Below, one piece after another: positions 19,349 through 19,645 of a DNA stretch of 64,000 nt. The stretch comes from Escherichia coli. GTDB lineage: Bacteria; Pseudomonadota; Gammaproteobacteria; Enterobacterales; Enterobacteriaceae. The notes under the pieces were generated by a model. The model made no database searches, was not told where the DNA came from, and saw only the letters and a list, made by a program, of their open reading frames with translations. Location: NCBI RefSeq assembly GCF_048403405.1, contig NZ_CP183129.1; one strand, written 5' to 3'. The translations under genes were made by a program, and so were the position numbers. Each line of letters begins with the position of its first letter. The first letter of the stretch is position 1.

Positions 19349-19420
19349 TGCAGGTCTCCTGGAGTCCACGCACATCGTGTAATGAGTCTGATGCTCATCT
19401 CCTTGTCACACGTTGTGTAA

Positions 19421-19437
19421 AAGTGGTACTGCCAATT
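19421..19437. promoter_or_regulatory. LldR operator-like palindrome (O2 position)
   Basis: AAGTGG-TACTG-CCAATT, one mismatch to the AATTGG-N5-CCAATT operator palindrome; ~75 bp upstream of the lldP start. Confidence 0.6.
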
Positions 19438-19546
19438 GTGTTGTGTAGGGATAATGACAATGAATGGTTAACTAAATGTTATGTATTGGCAACATCGATG
19501 TGAGTTTTAATTGGAGTTCTGTGAACCAGAGGTCAGATAAGCGAAG

Positions 19547-19563
19547 AATTGGTAGGGCCAATT
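19547..19563. promoter_or_regulatory. LldR operator-like palindrome (O1 position)
   Basis: Perfect AATTGG-TAGGG-CCAATT inside a longer 10-bp-arm inverted repeat (19544-19567); centre-to-centre spacing to the other site is 126 bp. Confidence 0.65.
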
Positions 19564-19585
19564 CTTCGTGGAGGGAGATGTCTGG

Positions 19586-19621
19586 TAAAGAAAAGGGCAA
19601 TCCTCATCAGAGAATTGCCCT
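19586..19621 (-). terminator. Rho-independent terminator downstream of the autotransporter gene
   Basis: On the minus strand: stem AGGGCAAT/ATTGCCCT with 12-nt loop, followed by TTTCTTTACC, 25 bp after the stop. Confidence 0.6.
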
Positions 19622-19645
19622 TAGTCACACTAAGTTAATGGATCA

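Follow-up and report, generated by a model that had tools for sequence, protein, structure and literature searches.

The stretch of DNA analysed here, called the window throughout, comprises 64,000 nucleotides of an Escherichia coli contig (NZ_CP183129.1). The genes that flank the spacer upstream of the lactate operon in this window all lie on the minus strand. Read in the direction of transcription, they begin with yibL (26162..26524; NCBIfam equivalog match, 190.9 bits, above the cut-off), which is followed by a 560-bp spacer of 35% GC (25602..26161) presumed to hold the sadBA promoter. Next comes an ortholog of sadB (24918..25601), whose 227-residue product would be an inner-membrane lipoprotein assisting adhesin export. 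The protein matches PDB entry 4C47 with E = 1.5e-70 and carries the lipobox LLAGC followed by D; the entry is deposited as 'inner membrane lipoprotein' and we take it to be the SadB of Salmonella. After a gap of 43 bp there is a 1742-residue ORF (19646..24874; GC 0.53) for a trimeric autotransporter adhesin of the YadA-like UpaG/EhaG/SadA type. Its product matches the NCBIfam trimeric-autotransporter models Ata, EmaA and YadA, in every case under the specific cut-off of the model, and is presumably intermediate in length between EhaG and UpaG. In other strains the RefSeq name for the same locus is 'YadA-like family protein' or 'ehaG'.

Downstream of the adhesin gene lie lldP (17693..19348), encoding the 551-residue L-lactate permease, then lldR (16917-17708) and lldD (15730-16920). 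LldP, LldR and LldD all score above the cut-offs of their NCBIfam equivalog models (1199 bits against 918, 498 against 311 and 824 against 550, respectively), and lldP is further supported by its alignment with K-12; the lactate operon is thus intact. The start of lldP had been placed at 19375, leaving a spacer of 270 bp, but position 19375 is only the ATG of the longest ORF and is off by 27 nt. The K-12-type start (MNLWQQ, with GGAGA before it) is the ATG at 19348-19346, so that the spacer occupies 19349-19645 and is 297 bp long.

The adhesin locus had first been seen as a large island beside the lactate promoter, but it is nothing unusual at this position. The sadBA operon of Escherichia, Salmonella and Shigella has a conserved place between mtl and lld, and K-12 represents a 5-kb deletion of it (PMC3953254, in which the operon is described). 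The window has the same order as the known sadBA/upaG/ehaG locus: yibL, AT-rich spacer, sadB ortholog, 43-bp gap, adhesin, terminator and lldP. Moreover, the 3' end of the adhesin gene adjoins the lld promoter in 4150 of 5426 complete E. coli genomes (~76%), which makes the adhesin-lld arrangement the norm in this species.

The picture differs between the species and the family. In a species-level scan, one genome per species was searched with a degenerate pattern for lldP codons 1-10, which gave a sample of 57 lld loci, nearly all from Enterobacteriaceae, picked independently of the operators; two of the contigs carry non-enterobacterial labels. Apart from the window, lldP has an adhesin 3' end upstream of it in only five loci of this sample, namely in Citrobacter youngae and in four of the Escherichia type, of which one is labelled as an Oscillospiraceae MAG. 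In K-12 and most Enterobacteriaceae yibL immediately precedes lldP, as it does in most of the species-level loci that have no adhesin. At the family level the distribution is therefore patchy at a fixed backbone site. Both of the contigs with non-enterobacterial labels, L005 (uncultured Oscillospiraceae MAG) and L056 (Chryseobacterium sp.), carry enterobacterial lld loci, and the YibL and adhesin C-terminus of L005 are 100% identical to those of the window; the labels probably reflect misbinning or contamination.

Within E. coli, the absences of the adhesin look like secondary deletions. In the adhesin-less Escherichia (the K-12 type, E. whittamii L038 and Escherichia sp. L046) the deletions end at or inside the hairpin that separates the adhesin gene from the lld promoter, and the first lld operator, O1, is never touched. 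Judging from their sequences, these three look to have lost sadBA separately. In L038 and L046 just the 3' half of the hairpin is left, and E. whittamii seems, as judged by eye, to retain a fragment of adhesin coding sequence.

The hairpin itself is the only terminator-like site returned by a terminator scan of 19100-19900, and it lies on the minus strand. A stem of 13 pairs, 6 of them GC, closes a 4-nt loop at 19622-19593 (AAGGGCAATTCTCTGATGAGGATTGCCCTT) and is followed by TTCTTTACCA; with its T-tract TTTTCTTTA, which runs to 19584, the whole element spans 19584..19622. The stem begins 23 nt past the TAA stop codon of the adhesin gene, and 22 nt separate the end of the T-tract from O1. A terminator hairpin between the adhesin stop and O1 had been noticed from the outset and was found again here. 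The hairpin alone folds at -20.5 kcal/mol, and a 71-nt segment containing it at -27.1 kcal/mol (z = -5.1), a value that none of 200 shuffled sequences equalled. Only the adhesin-sense strand has the T-tract. Minus-strand transcripts of the adhesin gene would be expected to end at this 13-bp GC-rich hairpin and its U-tract, at 19584-19622.

Which gene does this hairpin serve? We favour its assignment to the adhesin gene as a predicted intrinsic terminator. A hairpin of the type AGGGCAAT...ATTGCCCT with a T-tract follows the adhesin stop codon in E. coli, E. albertii, Escherichia sp. E1V33 and C. youngae, and the hairpin adjoins the adhesin stop in every adhesin-bearing locus of the sample (the window and five others). 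In Escherichia sp. E1V33 (L028) ~240 bp with BoxC-like repeats intervene between the adhesin terminator and O1; the assignment to the adhesin gene follows from the hairpin staying by the adhesin stop despite this insert. A further reason is that adhesin-bearing C. youngae and a Salmonella-type consensus have this kind of hairpin as well, whereas adhesin-less relatives have a different one: in adhesin-less Citrobacter and in Salmonella arizonae/diarizonae yibL abuts lldP and the hairpin is of the form CCGGGC...GCCCGG. The inner stem varies with compensating changes, being TTCTC/GAGGA in E. coli, TGGTA/TACTG in C. youngae and TGGCA/TGCCA in the Salmonella-type consensus, and the variants all fold at -16 to -22 kcal/mol in a comparison of five sequences made without statistics.

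One might alternatively regard the hairpin as an ancestral yibL terminator that was captured by insertion of sadBA. This idea is based on K-12, which has no adhesin and yet keeps an identical hairpin with REP elements and yibL before it, and on the yibL hairpins of Citrobacter, which share a GGGCAA/TTGCCC core. It is less favoured; the E1V33 insert, the C. youngae hairpin and the different hairpins of the adhesin-less relatives all speak against it. Given the shared core, a common ancestry of the adhesin and yibL hairpins is possible.

In most E. coli the adhesin stop and the terminator are separated by 70-120 bp of REP/BIME sequence. The window differs from most E. coli sadBA-type loci in having none, a REP-less junction that is found in 535 of the 5426 complete genomes and which packs the adhesin stop, the terminator and O1 into ~100 bp. 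In strain 105 the REP/BIME insert lies between 10-bp direct repeats (CTAAGGGCAA), the second of which forms the 5' arm of the terminator.

The lld control elements begin immediately beyond the terminator. A perfect match to AATTGG-N5-CCAATT, AATTGGTAGGGCCAATT, occupies 19547-19563, and a copy with one mismatch, AAGTGGTACTGCCAATT, occupies 19421-19437, 126 bp away, all as originally described. In the lldP sense these are O1 (AATTGGCCCTACCAATT), an LldR operator that is also a PdhR box, and O2 (AATTGGCAGTACCACTT), an LldR operator that would lie within the lldP 5' leader. The pattern with up to one mismatch has just these two matches in the 64-kb window, where 0.20 would be expected. Their earlier identification with the O1/O2 pair of lldPRD is borne out by comparison with the sequence upstream of lldP in K-12: the palindromes fall at the known operator positions and have the same spacing, O1 reproduces the published K-12 box exactly and fits the LldR consensus AAnTGGTCnGACCAnTT, and O2 differs from its published K-12 box (AAGTGGCACTGCCAATT, given for the opposite strand) by a single central substitution. 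Genomic SELEX of LldR identified two LldR boxes in the K-12 yibL/lldP spacer, AAtTGGcCctACCAaTT and AAgTGGcactgCCAaTT, both of which coincide with sites footprinted by Aguilera et al. (PMC10272880). The O1 sequence is also listed as a 13/14 match to the PdhR box, and lldPRD mRNA is raised 3.3-fold in a pdhR mutant (PMC7660256).

The alignment with K-12 runs from 19624 into lldP, with 97.2% identity over the 324 bp shared, and the O1-O2 interval has no indel among the window, K-12, an EhaG strain and an ST131-like strain. Three differences stand out. At position 19427 within O2 the window has A where K-12 and most strains have G in the lldP sense (T against C on the plus strand); the T falls at box position 7, where it agrees with the consensus T and brings O2 one step nearer to the LldR consensus. 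A 61-mer containing this O2 allele occurs identically in 223 of the 5426 E. coli genomes, and the allele is thus a minority one. Next to O1, an extra G at 19567 extends the inverted repeat to 11-bp arms (19542-19568), compared with 9-bp arms in K-12. Finally, a cluster of five nucleotides at 19515-19519, between O1 and the -35 region, reads GAACT in the window and ATTTC in K-12.

The core of the lldPRD promoter, with the -35 and -10 elements and the region of the ArcA site, is expected between the two operators, at 19438..19546 on the minus strand. O1 reportedly lies at -105 to -89 and O2 at +22 to +38 in the 2008 work of Aguilera. These positions would fit 19563-19547 and 19437-19421 exactly if +1 is taken to be 19458. 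Transcription of lldP would accordingly start at about 19458 and the leader would be 110 nt long. A crude sigma-70 scan did not detect the lldP promoter, as expected for a weak, activator-dependent promoter. In the published arrangement the ArcA operator, the -35 and the -10 are all located between O1 and O2 (+1 to -80), and the distance between the operators is important (PMC8689689).

The mechanism published for K-12 is one of DNA looping, in which LldR dimers bound at O1 and O2 form a loop and lactate causes release of O2 and activation from O1 (PMC5412874). The literature on LldR binding and lactate-dependent induction concerns a K-12 sequence nearly identical to that of the window (PMC5412874, PMC10272880), and binding of LldR, PdhR and ArcA to the sites described here is likely on the strength of this resemblance. 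When lactate is absent, LldR dimers bound at O1 and at O2, the latter 126 bp (12 helical turns) downstream of the former and in the lldP 5' leader, would interact and loop out the promoter, giving repression. L- or D-lactate would cause the O2 complex to let go, leaving O1-bound LldR to activate. PdhR at O1 would also repress, and ArcA, bound between the operators, would repress under anoxia.

The comparative data fit this model well. The O1-O2 spacing is 126 bp in 49 of 56 loci and 125 bp in the remaining 7 (window and K-12 counted), and the loci with a scored spacing span Escherichia, Citrobacter, Salmonella, Klebsiella, Raoultella, Kosakonia, Pluralibacter, Trabulsiella, Yokenella and others. 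Where a locus has enough upstream sequence, O1 precedes the lldP ATG by 211-218 nt and O2 by 86-92 nt. With a phasing of 126 bp, equal in the window and in K-12, both operators are on one side of the helix, a condition for DNA looping. The DNA directly upstream of O1 differs from genus to genus. A spacing that is held whilst the sequence upstream of O1 is free to vary provides strong comparative support for phased, cooperating operators, and a spacing of 125-126 bp across Enterobacteriaceae lends the looping model independent backing from comparative data.

The closeness of the adhesin locus to this promoter raises the question of whether the two are coupled, either by read-through from the adhesin gene that drives lldP or by H-NS silencing that spreads over the lld promoter. 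The adhesin gene and the lactate operon are read in the same direction, and the T-tract ends just 22 bp short of O1; this T-tract, TTTTCTTTA, is interrupted, which makes some read-through conceivable. However, the 13-bp hairpin is strong (-20.5 kcal/mol) and its structure is kept across genera by compensatory changes, as for a working terminator. Most of the 56 loci also have a GC-rich hairpin after the upstream stop codon and before O1, the adhesin-bearing ones and the majority of those with yibL adjacent alike, which suggests selection for insulation. We found no transcript data on read-through from the adhesin gene into lldP.

Spreading of H-NS gains some appeal from the fairly AT-rich O1-O2 region (38.5% GC) and from UpaG, which is reported to be repressed by H-NS in the passage of PMC5012682 that cites Totsika 2012. 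The first-pass annotation of this DNA had pictured an island, probably silenced by nucleoid proteins, upstream of lldP, yet the body of the adhesin gene is normal in composition (53.0% GC, against 51.4% for the window), and its 5.2 kb at 53% GC would make a poor substrate for an H-NS filament. Within the adhesin locus, AT-rich sequence is confined to sadB (42% GC) and the 560-bp yibL-sadB spacer (35% GC), both on the upstream side of the adhesin gene and over 5 kb away from O1. The spacer is the most plausible predicted H-NS target of the locus. A literature search for H-NS at lldP or yibL gave no relevant title. Elsewhere in the window GC falls to 0.27 at 33000-33500, beside a 1376-residue ORF (34626-38756, minus strand) upstream of the mtl genes. 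The lld promoter is, moreover, unchanged in strains that have lost sadBA. Coupling by either route thus seems improbable. A terminator that is strong and conserved, and a promoter unaltered by loss of the adhesin, argue for insulation rather than coupling, and insulation by the terminator would leave the lactate operon under the control of its own promoter whatever happens upstream.

The same segment also coincides with an Rfam family. On the plus strand, 19522-19631 matches RF02055 (STnc380) over the full length of the model (1-108 of 108) with 26.8 bits and E = 0.0023 in a search of 351 nt, which could be read as an STnc380 sRNA antisense to the lld promoter region. In favour of an sRNA are the end-to-end match and the equivalent segment of C. 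youngae (L012 3625-3732), which scores 101.8 bits and so exceeds the gathering score of 60 bits. The score in the window, however, is far under that threshold, and of the two stems in the model one is the palindrome of the LldR operator and the other the hairpin of the adhesin terminator. The operator 'stem' does not vary, just as one would expect of a site bound by protein. Read on the plus strand, the hairpin loses stability (-16.8 kcal/mol) and has AGTCACAC after it instead of a U-tract, and the sigma-70 scan of this strand gave no sigma-70-like promoter for an STnc380-type RNA. An sRNA here is very unlikely. STnc380 corresponds to the same intergenic segment, O1 plus hairpin, as in the window and is annotated on the strand opposite to lldP; its stems being operator and terminator seen from the opposite strand, the family may not be an sRNA.

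That chance alone produced the palindromes and the hairpin in an AT-rich spacer has negligible probability: although 4 of 100 shuffles of the window reach two matches at up to one mismatch, the palindromes equal or nearly equal published operators, the hairpin has a z-score of -5.1, and a chance origin is refuted by conservation of position and spacing in more than 50 species.

It is highly likely, then, that the interval is the control region of lldPRD, located just downstream of the Rho-independent terminator of a sadBA-type adhesin operon. In comparison with the K-12 lldPRD locus, it has the same O1, O2 in the same place, the 126-bp spacing and lldP-lldR-lldD downstream, and it differs in the A at 19427 in O2, the extra G at 19567, the changed sequence at 19515-19519 and an upstream neighbour that is the adhesin gene rather than yibL and REP elements. 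The operators, the looping mechanism, the adhesin operon and its position beside lld have all been published already, and the present analysis has little weight as a discovery. Its value lies in a clean annotation, in which the start of lldP is fixed, the hairpin is given to the adhesin gene and the promoter appears insulated, not obviously coupled to its neighbour.

Two further suggestions go beyond this annotation. One is that STnc380 may be an operator-plus-terminator misread as an sRNA; its coincidence with these two elements may help the curators of the family. The other, which is doubtful, is that the O2 substitution, the longer O1 palindrome and the loss of REP sequence together measurably retune lactate control. 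If this were true, the retuned allele could bring tighter repression or altered interference between terminator and operator to ~4-10% of E. coli.
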